A DNA stretch of 42,302 nucleotides, from IMG/VR virus record IMGVR_UViG_2713896905_000008; one strand, 5' to 3'. Position numbers and translations under genes: made by a program. Source of the stretch: a virus (taxonomy: Duplodnaviria > Heunggongvirae > Uroviricota > Caudoviricetes). Below are positions 1,250 through 42,302 of this stretch, one piece after another. The notes beneath the pieces were generated by a model. It was not told the DNA's origin. It did not search any database and saw only the letters and a list, made by a program, of their open reading frames with translations. The stretch's first letter is position 1. The number at the start of each line of letters is the position of its first letter.

Positions 1250-1675
1250 TCATTCATTCCCCAGTTCGGTGATGGTCAGTTCCAGCTTCCCATCTTTGGT
1301 AACAGGCATATTCACAACACGGTAATCAACGACCTGAGTATCATCCAGCCAGAAACCTGCTTTGGTGAGTGCATCAAAAGCGGCTTTTTGCAGATTATCC
1401 AGGTCACGGCGACGACGATCCGGCATATGGCACTCGATGCAGATTTTCACAGGAGTAACCAAACCCGATATCCAGCATTGAGTCTTTGATGATTCGGGCA
1501 ACGTTATCGCGGTATGCCTGCCCTTTTGCACTGATGTGCGTGCGCCCGCAATTATGCGATAGTAGCGATTATTGATCGACGGCCAGGGTAGTGTGATGTT
1601 GTAAGTATCCACACCTTGATTACCTCCTCTTTCAGCCAGATAACCAACTTTCTCGCCATACCTTCCTGTGCGCAC
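1250..1675 (-). CDS. rusA: RusA-family Holliday-junction resolvase, probably disrupted
   Basis: N-terminal [17 protein letters not shown] and C-terminal [38 protein letters not shown]...ELGNE match RusA as I recall it. The central ~31 codons match RusA only when read in another frame ([31 protein letters not shown]), implying two compensating frameshifts. True start is probably internal to the ORF-track span. Confidence 0.65.
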
Positions 1676-2182: not shown

Positions 2183-2633
2183 CTTCGTATGCTCAACTCG
2201 ATAGATTCATGATTGAGAATCTCAGACAGACTCAATACGACGCGATGTGCGCAGTCGCAGTGATTCAGGCAGAGATCGAGCGATATCGTGAGAAAAATGG
2301 GCTACTAATGCCATAACCACAGTCAGCGCTTGTCATCTTTCCAAATTCTCATATCAGACTTGCGCCCGATAAACCGACGAAAACTATTTAAAACCCATCG
2401 AGTGAAATAATCTCTAAAACCAAAGAGATACCAGGTGAAAATATTCACGATAAAATGCCCGGTCAGAGCCCCCGATACCGCATGCAAGAACAGTAAAAAA
2501 ATCATATGTGTTCATAAATATCAGCCCTCATCGTTTTGCCTGGCATATCCTTTACCGGCAATCTTCTGTATGCGCTAAGCCTGGATACCACATCACACTT
2601 GATTTAGATCTGTCACGGCGAACTGCCGTTCAA

Positions 2634-3134
2634 GATAAATGCGGGATGCTACTTGCTCTTGTTACTGGACAACGTTTAGGCGATATCTGCAATTTGAAAT
2701 TCTCTGATATCTGGGACGACATGTTGCACATTACTCAGGAAAAAACCGGTTCAAAACTTGCTATTCCGCTTAACCTGAAATGCGATGCTCTGAATATTAC
2801 CCTTCGTGAAGTTATATCTCAGTGCAGGGATGCTGTTGTTAGTAAATATCTGGTCCATTACCGTCACACAACCTCTCAAGCAAACAGAGGGGACCAGGTT
2901 TCTGCAAATACTCTGACAACGGCTTTTAAAAAGGCCAGGGAAAAATGTGGCATAAAATGGGAGCAAGGAACTGCGCCCACATTTCATGAGCAGCGATCTC
3001 TGTCAGAACGGTTATATCGGGAACAGGGTCTGGATACGCAAAAGTTGTTAGGTCATAAATCCAGAAAAATGACCGACCGATACAATGATGATCGTGGTAA
3101 AGACTGGGTTATCGTAGATATGAAAACAGCATAG
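2634..3134 (+). pseudogene. 5'-truncated tyrosine integrase (paralogue of the int at 41175-42302)
   Basis: Translation LLALVTGQRLGDICNLKFSDIWDD...HEQRSLSERLYREQGLDTQKLLGHKS...DRYNDDRGKDW aligns with the C-terminal ~165 aa of the full integrase at the window end. The N-terminal two-thirds are absent; the upstream ORF sequence is unrelated. Confidence 0.8.
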
Positions 3135-3144
3135 AAAATAGCCA

Positions 3145-3180
3145 GTTTTGGGGAAGGGTTTTGGGGAAAGTTTTGGGGAA
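3145..3180. repeat. three tandem copies of GTTTTGGGGAA between the truncated integrase and the icd terminator
   Basis: cagTTTTGGGGAAGGGTTTTGGGGAAAGTTTTGGGGAAga read directly. Confidence 0.7.
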
Positions 3181-3190
3181 GATTTTACAT

Positions 3191-3224
3191 CATCATAAAA
3201 CAACGGGCGTGTTATACGCCCGTT
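3191..3224 (-). terminator. intrinsic terminator following the icd 3' end
   Basis: Perfect stem AACGGGCG/CGCCCGTT with loop, followed on the minus strand by GTTTTAT. Lies about 20 nt past the icd-like stop. Confidence 0.6.
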
Positions 3225-3240
3225 TCAATATTTAACACAT

Positions 3241-3414
3241 GTAGTGATTACATATTCTTGATGATCGCGTCACCAAACTCTGAACATTTCAGCAGCTTAG
3301 CGCCTTCCATCAGACGTTCGAAGTCATAGGTTACGGTCTTCGCATTGATTGCGCCTTCCATACCTTTAACAATCAGGTCTGCGGCTTCAGTCCAGCCCAT
3401 ATGGCGCAGCATTA
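3241..3414 (-). pseudogene. icd: duplicated 3' end of isocitrate dehydrogenase gene (icdC-like att-site duplication)
   Basis: Minus-strand translation [54 protein letters not shown] is the Icd C-terminus. Homology stops abruptly at about 3414, where A+T-rich phage DNA begins. Confidence 0.85.
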
Positions 3415-3471
3415 GTTAGATAACTAAATCGTAACTATTTGACATAGCAGCATAATTTTACTAATTTGCAT

Positions 3472-3506
3472 ATAACTCATTAGCTCTTAGCATTTCCATA
3501 ACTCAT
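3472..3506. repeat. two direct copies of ATAACTCATT next to the att junction (candidate integrase arm-type sites)
   Basis: cATAACTCATTag at 3472 and cATAACTCATTga at 3497, within 100 bp of the icd/phage boundary. Confidence 0.35.
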
Positions 3507-3645
3507 TGATTATCAACATGTGTTTTTGAGTTTTGATAACCATTTTTAGCATAAAAATAGCAGTTAACATTTGCAGAAGTTAAGATCAGAGAAAATTTTT
3601 ACCCTGTAGGGTATTACGTCTTAAATGTGACTTTAATAAACAATT

Positions 3646-4479
3646 TTATTTCTGTAATCGATTTATATTAACGTAAAGCATCTCGATTAGTTCTTTTGCA
3701 TTTTTACTATAGTGCAATTCTCTATGGCAATTCGGACAAAGGGCAACACAGTTATCTGTTGTATCAGCACCACCTGAAGACAGGGGAATTACATGATGCA
3801 CTTCCAAGTATGGGCTTCCATCATTTAAATAAAACGGAGCATTTTTACCACAGTTTTCACATATACCTTTACTTTGCTGTAAAATCCAAGCTTTTACCAT
3901 CGGATCTCGGACATAAACTTTTTGTAGTCTTTCTACCTCAACTGGTTTCCTGGAGCCCTCGGGCTGACTCAACGTTTTCTTAATTAATTTACTAACCCTC
4001 ATATTCAGAAGCGATTCATCATCTGTAGGCTGAGAAAGCTCTGATAGTTCTCCACGTATTATAGACACCCAAAAACTGTCACTATAAATACCTGGAACAT
4101 TTATCAATATTCGTTTCGTTCTATTGCCGGAAGGAATTTCCTTTCTCCCCGTACGACTAAAATAAGCCTGATAACCACACATCTTCAAGCGTATATCGCG
4201 GGGGCTATTACCAATCAAAGTAAAATATTCACCAGGATGGATTTTTCTTTCATCCAAAGAATGCATATGTTTTCTGACTGATGATGACGCCAGATATACT
4301 ACGACTTGGGATACACCAGAATCAACCAACCGTTCAATGATATAATCAAGAGCGATATTGTAATCTTTGTTTCTGTCACCCGGCCCCCACGACTCAAGGA
4401 TTAGACCATAAACACCATCCTCTTCACCTATCAAACACTCAGCTTTCAGTTCAATTCCATTATTATCAAAAACATGCAT
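3646..4479 (-). CDS. mcrA: McrA, type IV 5-methylcytosine-specific restriction endonuclease (HNH)
   Basis: 277-aa translation matches E. coli McrA essentially end to end as I recall it (MHVFDNNGIELKAEC...CENCGKNAPFYLNDG...HHVIPLSSGGADTTDNCVALCPNCHRELH). Same position as in e14, next to pin. Confidence 0.9.
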   Translation of the reverse strand: MHVFDNNGIELKAECLIGEEDGVYGLILESWGPGDRNKDYNIALDYIIERLVDSGVSQVVVYLASSSVRKHMHSLDERKIHPGEYFTLIGNSPRDIRLKMCGYQAYFSRTGRKEIPSGNRTKRILINVPGIYSDSFWVSIIRGELSELSQPTDDESLLNMRVSKLIKKTLSQPEGSRKPVEVERLQKVYVRDPMVKAWILQQSKGICENCGKNAPFYLNDGSPYLEVHHVIPLSSGGADTTDNCVALCPNCHRELHYSKNAKELIEMLYVNINRLQK

Positions 4480-4585: not shown

Positions 4586-5147
4586 TTATTTATCCCCTGC
4601 AGGAAACATCTTATACAAAGTTGACACACCAACATCATAGATGATCGCCACCTTCTGGCGAGGAACTCCTGATGCAATTAATCGTCCGGCCTGTTCCCAT
4701 TGTTCTGGTGTAAGTTTGGGACGACGTCCACCAATTCGTCCCTGTGCGCGAGCAGCTTCCAGTCCAGCTTTTGTTCGTTCAACAATCAGTTCACGCTCCA
4801 TTTCAGCCAGGGCACCCATCACATGAAAAAAAAAAGCGCCCCATTGGGGTACTGGTATCAATTGAATCCGTCAGACTACGAAAGTTAATGCCTCGTTCGC
4901 GCAACTCCTCCACCAGCACGACAAGATGCCGCATACTGCGCCCCAGTCGGTCCAGTTTCCAGACCACCAGCGTGTCACCTGCCAATAATGTCCTGAGCAG
5001 TTTTTTCAGTCCTGGTCTGTCGGACTTAGTTCCACTGATTTTATCCTCAAAAATCCGCTCACATCCCGCGCAGTTCAGTGCATTACGTTGCAAATCGGTG
5101 TTCTGGTCATTTGTTGACACGCGTACATAGCCAATAAGCATGATCAT
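4586..5147 (-). pseudogene. pin: Pin/Gin/Hin-family serine DNA invertase, interrupted by a +1 frameshift
   Basis: N-terminal ORF 4803-5147 (MLIGYVRVSTNDQNTDLQRNAL...SIDTSTPMGRFFF) and C-terminal ORF 4586-4861 (FFFHVMGALAEMEREL...) are consecutive parts of Pin. The frames diverge in an A10 run at 4826-4835; with nine A's the reading is continuous. Confidence 0.85.
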
Positions 5148-27406: not shown

Positions 27407-28582
27407 ATGGATATAACTTGTTTAGAATGTGGCAATGTTCTTGACGACCCAACTGTAGCTTGCGATAAATGCGGCGCCACGCCTCATGTTGTAGTGCTGG
27501 GCAAACAATCGTACTTTCCTATTGGTGCTGTAACAGCAAATCTTGAAAAAAATGATTCAAGAGCATTTGATTATCGATTAGGTGAAGTTTGGGATCTAAA
27601 AAATGAAGTCACATCTGAATTCATAACCAGAATTGAGAAAAAATTTAGCCGAAAAAACAAATTTCATAACTTCCTAGACTCAGATCACAACCCTTCATCC
27701 ATTCCTACGATCCTAAAAAAATACATTAATAAAAATAATGAATTCATTGATTTATCTAGAGCTATAATAGAGAAGCTTAAACATAATGCTAATAACGAAT
27801 CGAGAGTTGCCCAACTTCAGGGGGGGAGCGTTGTTTTCATCCACTATAAGTCTACCGAACCAGAGGATTTGGGAAAACTTCTAATCGTAATGGTTGATAA
27901 ACAAAGCGCCTATGACTTTGATTCGGATAAGTTGACCCCAACAAGATTAAATCCAATTAATACCGATGCCTTACGGCAGGCTGCGATGTTCGATTTAACT
28001 TTATTCGAAGCCAGTTATCCAGAAAACAAGGGTGACTCATATGTACATTTCTTGCAAGGTAAATCTAAAAGCGATTTTTTCAAAGACTCATTAGGTTGCC
28101 GACATGATTCGGACAATAAAAGAAGCATTCAGCAATTATTCAGTGCTATAGATATTTTTGCTAGTAAAAACTCACTCGGTCGTGTACTGCGTGATACTAT
28201 TGACAATGAAGTTAAATCCTTACTGGAAAAAAAATCAAAAGATAAATACGGAAATAAGTCCGTTAAGATAGAGGATATTTCAAAAATAATTGACTCATGC
28301 CTGACTGATTCACACAAATGTAAGGGAACGTTTGTCGATTTTGTTAATCTTAATGGTTTCCAGATTGATCCTCAATTTGAACCAACTCCTAAAGCAGCTG
28401 AAAGCGCGCTTACAATTGAAGTGGCAGATAACGACAATAATTTTAAGTTGAAAATAATGCGTGGAGCTATTGGAGACGAAAAGTCAAATAAGCCTGTAAT
28501 TCTCACTGACAACAAATGCGAAATTGTGATAAAATTGAGTCAGGCAAATTATGATGAACTCAAAAGATATAGAGACAGCTAA
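27407..28582 (+). CDS. zinc-ribbon protein with NdpA/YejK-like (NA37-type) region; first gene of a cargo pair
   Basis: 391 aa. N-terminal CLECGN...CDKCG four-Cys ribbon. Central region aligns by eye with YejK: GGSVVFIHY / GGFVLFCHY and YVHFLQGKSKSDFFKDSLG / [22 protein letters not shown]. A+T-rich. Confidence 0.6.
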   Translation: MDITCLECGNVLDDPTVACDKCGATPHVVVLGKQSYFPIGAVTANLEKNDSRAFDYRLGEVWDLKNEVTSEFITRIEKKFSRKNKFHNFLDSDHNPSSIPTILKKYINKNNEFIDLSRAIIEKLKHNANNESRVAQLQGGSVVFIHYKSTEPEDLGKLLIVMVDKQSAYDFDSDKLTPTRLNPINTDALRQAAMFDLTLFEASYPENKGDSYVHFLQGKSKSDFFKDSLGCRHDSDNKRSIQQLFSAIDIFASKNSLGRVLRDTIDNEVKSLLEKKSKDKYGNKSVKIEDISKIIDSCLTDSHKCKGTFVDFVNLNGFQIDPQFEPTPKAAESALTIEVADNDNNFKLKIMRGAIGDEKSNKPVILTDNKCEIVIKLSQANYDELKRYRDS

Positions 28583-33823: not shown

Positions 33824-34761
33824 CCCCTAAATCCTGCCGGGATCTGGCTGTAGTCCACGTTGTCGTAACTGGCTTTGAAGTACGGGTCTTCACGTTTTTC
33901 TGTGTGCGTGCTGACGGACGGCGATAAGCGCAGGGAAAGCTCATCCCATTTTTCCCGCAACTTCGACGGGCTGAGCACGTTACGGCACCAGAACGGATCG
34001 CGGCTGACGCGGCTGTACATCTCGCAGATTTGTTTGTGAGTACGACCATCCTGCACACACATCAGGCGAATTTCGTTTGCCCAGGCTGTCCAGTTAGGTT
34101 CTTTGGGACGAACCACCTCGCCGTCACATTCGGCGGCCTGCTCGTACAGGGCGATGATTTTTTTCCAGAGCCACTGTGCGCAGGTCAAATCATCCTGCGT
34201 CCCCCACTGGCGCTTTTTAGGGCTGAATACAACCGCATCAGGATGGCGAGTTAAAAAATCCTGTTCATCCGTCTGCGTGTCCGGTTGCGAAGCGTCCGGA
34301 CGAGAAGGTTTTTTATCTGACGGATCATGTTTTGATTTTACTGACGGATCCCCGCCAGATTCTGACGGGTGAAAACCCGCTTTTTTGCCAGATTTCGACG
34401 CATCAAATTTTGACGGGTCAGATTTTGATGCGTCAGATTTTGACGGGTCAGAATCTGACAGTTGAGAAAATGCCGCTGCCTGAAGCTTCGCAACGTTAAG
34501 CTGATAAACATTCGACGCATTGCGGTTACCCTGGCGACGCGCCTTACGCGTTAACCAGCCTTCTGCTTCCAGCCGTGCGATAGCCGTCCTGACGGTACTC
34601 ATCCCCGCGCCAATCTGACGGGCAATAGTTTCAATTGATGGCCAGCACACACCTTCGTCATTACTGAAATCAGCCAGGCGGGCCATAATTGCCACGCTGG
34701 ATAATTTCATGCCTGACGCTGCGCAACCATCCCATACATAGCCGGTTAATTTAGTGCTCAT
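33820..34761 (-). CDS. replication initiation protein (O-like) containing iterons
   Basis: 313 aa; N-terminal winged-helix-like region; central low-complexity SDSDPSKSDASKSDPSKFDASKS encoded by tandem DNA repeats. Confidence 0.6.
   Translation of the reverse strand: MSTKLTGYVWDGCAASGMKLSSVAIMARLADFSNDEGVCWPSIETIARQIGAGMSTVRTAIARLEAEGWLTRKARRQGNRNASNVYQLNVAKLQAAAFSQLSDSDPSKSDASKSDPSKFDASKSGKKAGFHPSESGGDPSVKSKHDPSDKKPSRPDASQPDTQTDEQDFLTRHPDAVVFSPKKRQWGTQDDLTCAQWLWKKIIALYEQAAECDGEVVRPKEPNWTAWANEIRLMCVQDGRTHKQICEMYSRVSRDPFWCRNVLSPSKLREKWDELSLRLSPSVSTHTEKREDPYFKASYDNVDYSQIPAGFRG
34356..34463. repeat. iteron array (candidate replication origin) inside the replication gene
   Basis: Six or more roughly 15-bp units of CAGATTTTGACGGGT type (CAGATTCTGACGGGT, CAGATTTCGACGCAT, CAAATTTTGACGGGT, CAGATTTTGATGCGT, CAGATTTTGACGGGT, CAGAATCTGACAGTT). 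Confidence 0.6.
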
Positions 34762-37880: not shown

Positions 37881-38102
37881 TTGAGGAGGTGTGAAATGCA
37901 CAAAACAGAACCAAAAATCGTCGCGCCCGGATACACAAATGAGGAAATTTACGAGTGGATGGCAAAGAAGCTGGCAGCTATAAACCAGCTTCGTGAAGTG
38001 CTGTCTTATCGACAGAAAACAATAGACTCCTTAAAAAAACTGGATCAGGAAATCACGGTTTTATCACAGGATGTTACTTTAGATATTGTGCAGACAAATT
38101 AG
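37881..38102 (+). CDS. small hypothetical early protein
   Basis: About 68 aa from MHKTEPK; first ORF downstream of the pL-like promoter. Not Arg-rich, so not N-like. Confidence 0.35.
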   Translation: MRRCEMHKTEPKIVAPGYTNEEIYEWMAKKLAAINQLREVLSYRQKTIDSLKKLDQEITVLSQDVTLDIVQTN

Positions 38103-38508
38103 GATCCCATTCATTTTCGTCAAAATCATCAAAGTGATGAATTTGTGATCTCCAGTCTCGATAATCTAAAAATTTCTGGGCGGTTACGCTTATTTTATCA
38201 AGTGTGAGTTCATCCTGAATTGAAAGAAGAAGTTCATCAAATTTCATCTCATTAATCTGTTTTGGCATCCAGTGATGCTTCATCAGAATAAGGTGAACCA
38301 GAGCCTTTTTCCCATTCAACTGATTATAGGGAGTGCCGAATTTCTTCCGGTGCTCATGTAAGACAAGGTCCAGAAGAGTAAGTAATGTTGCCCTTGATTC
38401 AACTTTGCTTATTTCGACTGATGACACTACCCCACTGATTTCAATGCCCCGATACTTTCCAACATTTTCACAGTGGGATTTGTACAGCGTATAGATATTA
38501 CCGGACAT
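38074..38508 (-). CDS. hypothetical protein with Rx6H motif (possible HEPN-like)
   Basis: 144 aa, A+T-rich, opposite strand to the surrounding early genes; C-terminal RDWRSQIHH. Confidence 0.4.
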   Translation of the reverse strand: MSGNIYTLYKSHCENVGKYRGIEISGVVSSVEISKVESRATLLTLLDLVLHEHRKKFGTPYNQLNGKKALVHLILMKHHWMPKQINEMKFDELLLSIQDELTLDKISVTAQKFLDYRDWRSQIHHFDDFDENEWDPNLSAQYLK

Positions 38509-38639
38509 TTCTTTTCCTTTTGCGTTGTTGGGGATAACCAGATTAACCGAATCCTTGTTGTTGGGGAATAACCAGGTCCACCTCGCCTGATGTGGCTAAA
38601 AGCAGGCACATAACAGCTAAGTATTTTCAACCAGAGAGA

Positions 38640-40933: not shown

Positions 40934-41194
40934 ATGAGGTTATCAAAAATGCTTCAAATGCTGACACTTGAGGAATGGGCTGCGGAAAAATTTAGGAGTA
41001 ATCCTCCAAGTGTGTCCACATTGCGTCGTTATGCTAAGCAGAATTTATTTTGTCCACCAGCAATGAAACAAGGTCGACTCTGGCGAGTACGTGAGGACGC
41101 AGAGTTAGTTGGGGAATTAGTTACTCCTGTCATCAAGAAAAGTGATTCTATTATTCTACAAAGGATTTTAAGTAATGGCAGCCAGACCACGTAA
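40934..41194 (+). CDS. xis: excisionase (lambda Xis-like)
   Basis: 86 aa; LTLEEWAAEKF...STLRRYAKQNLFCPPAMKQGRLWRVREDAEL parallels lambda Xis; overlaps the int start. Confidence 0.75.
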   Translation: MRLSKMLQMLTLEEWAAEKFRSNPPSVSTLRRYAKQNLFCPPAMKQGRLWRVREDAELVGELVTPVIKKSDSIILQRILSNGSQTT

Positions 41195-42302
41195 AAATAA
41201 TGTCTCAGTCCCGAACTTGTATCCGCTCTATAGCAGAAAAGTAAATAAAGTCTATTGGCGATATAAGCATCCAGTGACCGGGAAGTTTCATTCTTTGGGC
41301 GCAAACGAAGCTGAAGCCATTGCTATTGCCACTGAGGCCAATACACGCCTGGCTGAGCAAAGAACCCGGCAGATTCTGGCTATCAGTGACAGGATCGCAA
41401 CCAGCAAAGGAAAAGCAATCACAACGTCAACCTGGTTAGATCGCTATCAAGCAATCCAGGATGACAGACTGAAAAGTGGCGATATAAAGCTCAACACCTA
41501 TAAACAGAAAGCCAAACCAGTATCCTTGCTCAGGGAACGAGCAGGAATGAAGTTAATTTCATCCGTTGATGTAAGGGATATAGCACAATTGCTTGACGAG
41601 TATATCACTGCTGGGCAACCGAGGATGGCGCAAGTAGTCCGCTCCGTTCTAATTGATGTATTCAAGGAGGCACAACACTATGGGGAGGTCCCTCCTGGCT
41701 ATAATCCAGCATTAGCGACCAAACAGCCCAGAAGAAAAATTACCCGACAACGGTTAAGCCTTGAAGAATGGCAAAAAATCTTTGATATCGCAGATGCCAG
41801 TCATCGTTATATGGGGAATGCCATGCTGTTAGCACTGGTTACCGGTCAGAGGTTAGGTGATATCTCGCGTATGAAATTTAGCGATATTTGGGATGATCAT
41901 CTCCATATCATTCAGGAAAAGACCGGGAGCAAAATCGCAATTCCTCTTTCTCTTCGTCTCAACGCGATTAACTGGAGTTTACGCGATGTAGTCGCTCGCT
42001 GCCGTGACTATGCAGTCAGCCCATACCTTGTACATTTTTTCCGTACTACTTCACAGGCTGAACGTGGCGCGCAGGTTAAATCCAATACATTGACCATGAA
42101 TTTCAGTAAAGCAAGGGATTTGGCAGGAATCGACTGGGGGGATGGATCGCCCGCAACATTCCATGAACAAAGATCTTTATCTGAACGTCTTTACAAACAA
42201 CAGGGGTTAGACACACAAAAACTACTTGGTCATAAATCACAACAACAAACCGATCGTTATCATGATGATCGAGGTAAAGGATGGAGCAAAGTAGCATTGT
42301 GA
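41175..42302 (+). CDS. int: tyrosine integrase (lambda Int family, e14 IntE-like)
   Basis: 375 aa, complete, with stop at the last three bases of the window. C-terminal catalytic region (HEQRSLSERLY, LLGHKS, DRYHDD). 3' end faces the window edge, where the att site is expected. Confidence 0.9.
   Translation: MAARPRKNNVSVPNLYPLYSRKVNKVYWRYKHPVTGKFHSLGANEAEAIAIATEANTRLAEQRTRQILAISDRIATSKGKAITTSTWLDRYQAIQDDRLKSGDIKLNTYKQKAKPVSLLRERAGMKLISSVDVRDIAQLLDEYITAGQPRMAQVVRSVLIDVFKEAQHYGEVPPGYNPALATKQPRRKITRQRLSLEEWQKIFDIADASHRYMGNAMLLALVTGQRLGDISRMKFSDIWDDHLHIIQEKTGSKIAIPLSLRLNAINWSLRDVVARCRDYAVSPYLVHFFRTTSQAERGAQVKSNTLTMNFSKARDLAGIDWGDGSPATFHEQRSLSERLYKQQGLDTQKLLGHKSQQQTDRYHDDRGKGWSKVAL

Follow-up and report, generated by a model that had tools for sequence, protein, structure and literature searches.

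The attP of phage lambda carries the arm-type sites P′1-P′3 and P1 together with the IHF sites H1 and H2, and the lambda Xis sites X1/X2 lie in the interval between the two IHF sites. Over its full length, the integrase of phage 21 (Int21) is homologous to lambda Int (1z1b), the alignment starting at residue 5 (E 2e-55). Attachment sites of the phage-21 and e14 types resemble that of lambda in having three tandem sites past the 3′ end of int and a same-orientation copy in the distal P arm, and the e14-type P arm, with one predicted IHF site adjoining the distal arm site and another near the core, further matches the lambda layout. The arm motif itself differs, being (C/A)AGTCACTAT in lambda versus TTTTGGGGAA or TTTTGATAAC here, the P′ array lies ~220-265 bp from the core, and neither a P2-like inverted site nor an H′-like consensus was found.

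The closest described counterpart of the locus studied here is the attP of phage 21 (OL657228.1; M61865; AF017626), for which the genome record OL657228.1 bears the label 'integration site attP consists of 3 subsites P1P2P3; consensus YYTTCCCCAAAA'. A fourth exact TTTTGGGGAA in the same orientation stands 119 bp beyond the icd-homology boundary of phage 21, so that the outermost copies span ~395 bp; copies in both attP arms are likewise found in L062, L111, and L192. In a 1997 study in the Journal of Bacteriology, Wang and colleagues reportedly found the minimal attP of phage 21 to measure between 366 and 418 bp, with 'repeated dodecamers' at its outer limits for which a role as arm recognition sites was suggested. 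The genome announcement for phage 21 is silent on attP, and a full-text literature search returned no paper that describes these sites.

The window analysed here, namely the whole 42,302-nucleotide stretch of virus record IMGVR_UViG_2713896905_000008, represents the icd attachment locus of an Escherichia-like genome in reverse reading. Comparison with phage 21 and with the e14 prophage of E. coli K-12 indicates that positions 3145-3541 are very probably a hybrid attachment-site junction, generated by two successive integrations at one icd point, in which a triplet of GTTTTGGGGAA units constitutes the P′ arm sites of a phage-21-type element.

The GTTTTGGGGAA triplet and the icd junction

The left side of the junction contains the following features:

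2637-3134 (+), last 166 codons of a phage-21-type tyrosine integrase
3145-3155 (+), proposed P′ arm-type unit 1 of the phage-21 class, exact GTTTTGGGGAA
3158-3168 (+), proposed P′ arm-type unit 2, exact GTTTTGGGGAA
3170-3180 (+), proposed P′ arm-type unit 3, exact GTTTTGGGGAA
3202-3224 (-), intrinsic terminator of the phage-supplied icd 3′ end, a strong stem-loop; a terminator is also annotated in the phage 21 record
3248-3412 (-), icd 3′ coding fragment of 165 bp (last 54 codons and stop), brought by the phage-21-type element
3398-3412 (no strand assigned), end of icd homology (CATATGGCGCAGCAT), junction of the old 21-type element with the e14-type prophage

The integrase gene is a remnant. 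The open reading frame as called spans 2508-3134 (+), of which 2508-2636 is unrelated sequence, and homology to full-length integrases of 380 aa begins at 2637. The first ~214 codons have been lost, and with them the N-terminal arm-binding and core-binding parts; Pfam recognizes PF00589 (the catalytic domain) alone and no PF09003. Eleven bp past the int stop, and ahead of the icd terminator on the opposite strand, starts the triplet, which Tandem Repeats Finder (TRF) reports as a period-13 array at 3144-3186. The three units that had been placed between the truncated integrase and the icd terminator at 3145-3180 were confirmed as exact copies starting at 3145, 3158, and 3170, a repetition far above chance, and the 42-kb window holds no further match to GTTTTGGGGAA at up to one mismatch. 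The array is located 220-265 bp from the icd boundary because the icd 3′ end, together with its terminator, is part of this arm. No H′-like IHF consensus (up to one mismatch) was detected between array and core in 3135-3412, and an Rfam scan of 2400-4000 produced sub-threshold chance matches only.

Phage 21 possesses the same array, spacer, terminator stem, and 165-bp icd pseudogene. Array and terminator are base-for-base identical in the two sequences (37 bp of array at 27563-27599 of OL657228.1), the array follows the int stop by 11 bp in both, and a phage-record search gave 97-98.6% identity over int, array, terminator, and icd fragment to phage 21 and a family of lambda-like coliphages. 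The window differs in that its int is cut to the last 166 codons and in that the 21-type P arm with the fourth motif copy is replaced by an e14-type P arm. The comparison supports the assignment of the triplet as the P′ arm-type integrase-site array of a phage-21-type attP, one that has already been annotated. Since the cognate arm-binding domain is deleted and the window lacks both the cognate P arm and any further copy of the motif, this array would be the orphaned relic of an older prophage.

A single icd fragment with its boundary (3248-3412) is present in the 42 kb. The icd att duplication of the preliminary description is visible in one half; the other copy is situated past the right end of the window, which terminates exactly at the stop codon of the e14-type integrase. 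The crossover must lie at or just inside the boundary at 3398-3412, its exact position being deduced from the end of homology. From 3413 rightward the DNA is almost identical to the mcrA side of K-12 e14, and the rest of the window belongs to the e14-type prophage. Where K-12 has host DNA (iraM) after icdC, the window has the 21-type P′ array and int remnant. The tandem arrangement of icd, 21-type array, and int remnant also occurs in strain 82.0311.

Left of the truncated integrase, 1-2636 consists of decayed lambdoid late-region remnants. Bases 1-946 are ~93% identical to the surroundings of the Q antiterminator gene in many E. coli, and an open reading frame at 1250-1675 (-) is putatively RusA-like. 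The junction of these remnants was found in none of the complete E. coli genomes searched.

Arm-motif classes and integrase N-terminal signatures

A scan for icd/att boundaries, with one genome per species, yielded 23 true junctions from Escherichia, Shigella, Citrobacter, Klebsiella, Kosakonia, Proteus, Morganella, Providencia, Xenorhabdus, and Arsenophonus. Many of them carry, just ahead of the icd terminator, two to three tandem units of either TTTTGGGGAA or a second motif, TTTTGATAA(C); neither motif occurs at junctions where host DNA follows icd. The triplet is kept while its flanks diverge in the Citrobacter, Morganella, and Proteus junctions, and in L077, whose integrase is 83% identical, three TTTTGGGGAAG units persist with changed spacers, terminator sequence, and int 3′ end. 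The GTTTTGGGGAA array is accordingly present in related att regions across genera. Among viral contigs, 57 of 76 distinct arrays have exactly three units at 11-13 bp spacing, and the order of int stop followed by array recurs in ~90 contigs. Both array scans demanded two matching units, so the unit consensus itself is circular; the third unit and the association with the integrase are free of this circularity, and the compared sequences are related rather than phylogenetically independent.

The two motifs are accompanied by two types of integrase N-terminus. All 28 distinct signatures beside TTTTGGGGAA arrays read NLY.K(L/T)DKR..K.Y(W/F)(Q/T)Y and are 21-like, including those of integrases 39-52% identical to Int21 that have no icd fragment downstream; phages that integrate outside icd thus retain the TTTTGGGGAA motif after the int stop. 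Beside TTTTGATAA arrays, 11 of 12 signatures read NLYPL(Y/F/L)SRK..K.YWRY, as in the e14-type integrase of the window (NLYPLYSRKVNKVYWRY). The lone discordant case, L114/L312 from Providencia alcalifaciens, combines a 21-like N-terminus with an e14-class array. Its integrase gene is a mosaic pseudogene: a stop codon interrupts the reading frame, histidine replaces the arginine of the catalytic HxxR, and over residues ~280-360 the sequence shares 82-95% identity with an e14-class integrase. This mixture, beside an e14-class array, points to recombination of one class with the other where icd prophages of both stood in tandem. Judged from these sequences, the data fit a motif class that tracks the N-terminal (arm-binding) domain of the integrase and not the core or the integration site. 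Identity to the annotated phage 21 subsites, conservation of position, and covariation with the integrase domain are all directly observed.

The e14-class P′ arms of K-12, RM7190, and Klebsiella phage Kp4865-4 each contain three TTTTGATAA(C/A) units at 13/11 bp spacing; the same motif, as GTTTTGATAACC, was also found in the P arm of the Kp4865-4 record. The phage vB_EcoM-689R6 was considered as an excised e14-type circle and rejected, being a prophage extract that includes host icd. Among the IMG/VR integrase neighbours, downstream DNA could be seen in 8 of 80 loci only, because most prophage contigs end exactly at the int stop.

Several further observations were made in the course of this survey. 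In L142 (Xenorhabdus) and L132 (Providencia), TTTTGCAGAAG occupies the P′ array position before the icd terminator and is possibly a third arm-motif class. The circular genome of Providencia phage PSTCR8lys (L158/L159, MW057859.1) encodes a 21-like N-terminus and has a three-unit 21-class array past the int stop, but over the following ~1.1 kb neither an icd fragment nor a P-arm copy appears; this phage may integrate at a different site, or its attP may be deleted. The P arm of L113, from an Arsenophonus endosymbiont, is replaced by a long tandem array of TTATTGTTT directly past the icd boundary. In e14-type elements of E. coli (L006, L008, L009, L155), the cargo between intE and the P′ array varies by strain, comprising ymfD/ymfE/lit in K-12, a DUF262 gene plus a hypothetical gene in RM7190 and vB_EcoM-689R6, and an HNH endonuclease plus an AAA ATPase in FDAARGOS_536. 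Variable genes, possibly with roles in defence, seem to have a hot spot in this interval, immediately inside the att arm.

The e14-type P arm and the ATAACTCATT pair

To the right of the icd boundary, and at the far end of the window, the e14-type prophage provides the following features:

3432-3444 (-), core-proximal IHF-like site TGTCAAATAGTTA, one mismatch to WATCAANNNNTTR, comparable to lambda H2
3472-3481 (+), first ATAACTCATT unit, in a stretch unconserved outside the K-12-e14 lineage and possibly without function
3498-3507, second ATAACTCATT unit, exact, overlapping the IHF consensus
3499-3511 (-), predicted IHF site, consensus AATCAATGAGTTA, no mismatches to WATCAANNNNTTR, comparable to lambda H1
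3530-3540 (+), proposed arm-type site of the e14 class, GTTTTGATAAC, in the e14-type P arm, a counterpart of lambda P1
40934-41194 (+), e14-type excisionase (PF07825, E 1.8e-12)
41175-42302 (+), full-length e14-type integrase with arm-DNA-binding domain (PF09003, Arm-DNA-bind_1, E 4e-37, plus PF00589), its stop codon ending on the last base of the window

The P arm at 3413-3645 is almost identical to the mcrA-icdC DNA of K-12, both ATAACTCATT units and GTTTTGATAAC included. The ATAACTCATT pair lies 60-95 bp to the phage side of the icd-homology boundary at 3412. Both units are exact, as had been described, and the second ends at 3507, one base beyond the 3506 given earlier. Markov simulations predict ~1 place in the window where an exact 10-mer is repeated within 10-40 bp, versus ~9 observed, so the pair is probably non-random, though not striking alone.

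When 19 non-redundant P arms (46% median pairwise identity) were aligned, only three islands proved to be conserved: TAaC...tTGAtt at 3432-3444, TAAC...tTGATT at 3499-3511, and GTTTTG(ATAAC or GGGAA) at 3530-3540. An exact arm 10-mer of either class is found at offset 112-120 from the boundary in all 20 non-redundant P arms, and a perfect IHF consensus (the reverse complement of WATCAANNNNTTR) at offset 86/87 in 12 of 20; a near-consensus is kept in most of the others (L092, L101, L116, L131, L142, L149), with L077/L134 diverging most. In 3135-3660 of the window, the two IHF sites listed above are the only matches with up to one mismatch. Inspection by eye of the printed P arms showed no conserved P2-like inverted arm site; phage 21 has an inverted copy with two mismatches at offset ~65, which is confined to close relatives.

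These comparisons separate the two repeat sets, both of which had been proposed as arm-type sites. Annotation in phage 21, the fourth copy in the opposite arm of the phage 21 attP, cross-genus conservation, and covariation uphold the proposal for the triplet. For the ATAACTCATT pair it is rejected, because the P′ arms of the e14 class in K-12, RM7190, and Kp4865-4 contain three copies of the GTTTTGATAAC motif and no ATAACTCATT, and because the first unit is unconserved, being lost even in the closest cross-genus relatives (Citrobacter L101, and L047). Nowhere among related P arms is ATAACTCATT conserved as a pair; what is kept is the TAAC...TTGATT core overlapping the second unit. Given the perfect consensus at 3499-3511, the second unit makes up most of the predicted IHF site and, on the P-arm alignment, is part of a conserved IHF-consensus site beside the distal arm-type site. 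By the same alignment, the first unit is a lineage-specific near-duplicate without a conserved role.

The role of arm site would fall to GTTTTGATAAC at 3530-3540, which the preliminary description had overlooked and which is the presumed cognate of the e14-type integrase at 41175-42302. At up to one mismatch GTTTTGATAAC occurs six times in the window versus 0.9 expected. One such near-match, at 40939-40949 (-) on the xis ribosome-binding site, was considered as an autoregulatory site; it is found in RM7190 and not upstream of K-12 xisE, and the idea was dropped for this lack of conservation. The near-match is probably coincidental.

The related TTGGGGA motif that had been noted at 38525-38575 proved to be a real direct pair, TTGTTGGGGA(A)TAACCAG at 38525-38541 and 38557-38574 (17/18 bp), but its likeness to the arm unit is within chance. 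One copy matches GTTTTGGGGAA at 9/11 positions and the other at 8/11 (a count by eye, below the search threshold), and matches with up to two mismatches number 12 in the window against 15.6 expected, so 9/11 is unexceptional. The pair belongs to the prophage early region, 15-65 bp upstream of an ECs1072-family accessory open reading frame (38074-38508, -), at a mosaic junction relative to K-12 e14, with which homology restarts at 38578. No att boundary adjoins it within the window, and with this early-region position it was rejected as an att-related motif. Strain MB165 has a similar pair upstream of a different minus-strand accessory gene, and the repeat appears to be a regulatory or junction element common to the accessory genes that occupy this spot.

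Two other features of the e14-type prophage were recorded. At 34389-34452, ~4.3 tandem copies of CAGATTTTGACGGGT with a period of 15 (also scored at period 30) could form an operator or iteron array. The pin invertase at 4586-5147 (-) is split into two overlapping open reading frames, 4803-5147 and 4586-4861, by a frame shift at the conserved GRFFF|HVMGAL, which indicates a pseudogene or a homopolymer sequencing error.

Competing readings and significance

On the main reading of the preliminary description, one integrase would use the triplet and the pair alike as arm-type sites around one att core. Both do lie within ~270 bp of the icd boundary, on opposite sides, like the P and P′ sites of lambda. 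However, the two sides derive from different elements, the left carrying what is left of a 21-type int and the right belonging to an e14-type prophage, the GTTTTGGGGAA and ATAACTCATT motifs are unrelated, and the distribution of ATAACTCATT described above leaves the arm-site role to GTTTTGATAAC, making a single-integrase site very unlikely. It is unlikely, to a lesser degree, that the ATAACTCATT pair represents sites for XisE or another accessory protein specific to the K-12-type e14 lineage. As a direct repeat in the P arm, the pair occupies the interval where lambda Xis sites lie, its first unit between the two IHF-like sites and its second overlapping the distal one; close 10-mer repeats of this kind are rare by chance, and the e14 copies of K-12, other E. 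coli, and Shigella all have the pair in identical form. That identity says little, because these copies are near-identical overall, and the IHF consensus fully accounts for the second unit, whose IHF core is all that remains of the pair in Citrobacter L101 and L047. A lineage-specific Xis site at the first ATAACTCATT unit is possible.

The suggestion that one or both repeats are promoter or operator elements is highly improbable. Operators can take the form of short direct repeats in AT-rich intergenic DNA, yet no sigma-70-like match overlaps either repeat; the triplet is enclosed by the convergent 3′ ends of int and icd, the pair stands between the 3′ ends of two minus-strand features, mcrA and the icd fragment, and the triplet follows the int stop even in phages that integrate elsewhere. 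It is hardly credible that the G-rich triplet acts through DNA or RNA structure, as a G-quadruplex or as part of the int 3′ UTR, and not through protein binding. Four G-runs (GGGG/GGG) do fall within 3149-3177 on the plus strand, but related arrays often have three G-runs only (as in L077), the sister class TTTTGATAAC stands at the same positions with none, and in RNA folding of the region the icd terminator is the sole stable element.

Under the preferred reading of a hybrid junction, we infer protein binding and the order of the two integrations as follows. In the intact 21-type element, the N-terminal arm-binding domain of the integrase would bind the three GTTTTGGGGAA units and the fourth copy in the P arm, its C-terminal domains would bind the core at the icd boundary, and IHF bends would help fold the ~400-bp site into an intasome. 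An e14-type phage would later have integrated at the same core, setting its own P arm, with the IHF-like site at 3432-3444, the predicted IHF site at 3499-3511, and the arm site GTTTTGATAAC at 3530-3540, beside the old icd fragment. The full-length e14-type integrase is expected to read GTTTTGATAAC at that position. It is also conceivable, if quite unlikely, that the hybrid P(e14)-core-P′(21) site is still active and that the first ATAACTCATT unit is an added accessory-protein site tuning directionality. With an active hybrid site, the array could serve as a target for a 21-type integrase, incoming or co-resident, and e14-type excision might be altered or new 21-type phages captured at a secondary site.

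Both repeat features are ordinary for a lambda-type attachment site, the biology is already known, and there is no departure from the lambda model. The value of the comparison is mainly that of correct annotation. A decayed element of the phage-21 type has its left boundary at the triplet, and GTTTTGATAAC with the two IHF-like sites would mark the functional e14-type P arm, which helps to delimit the two tandem prophages and to predict whether the e14-type one is still able to excise. Modular arm-site specificity is already established for lambda-family integrases, and the cross-genus survey illustrates it with two motif classes that accompany two arm-binding-domain signatures, independently of the integration site.
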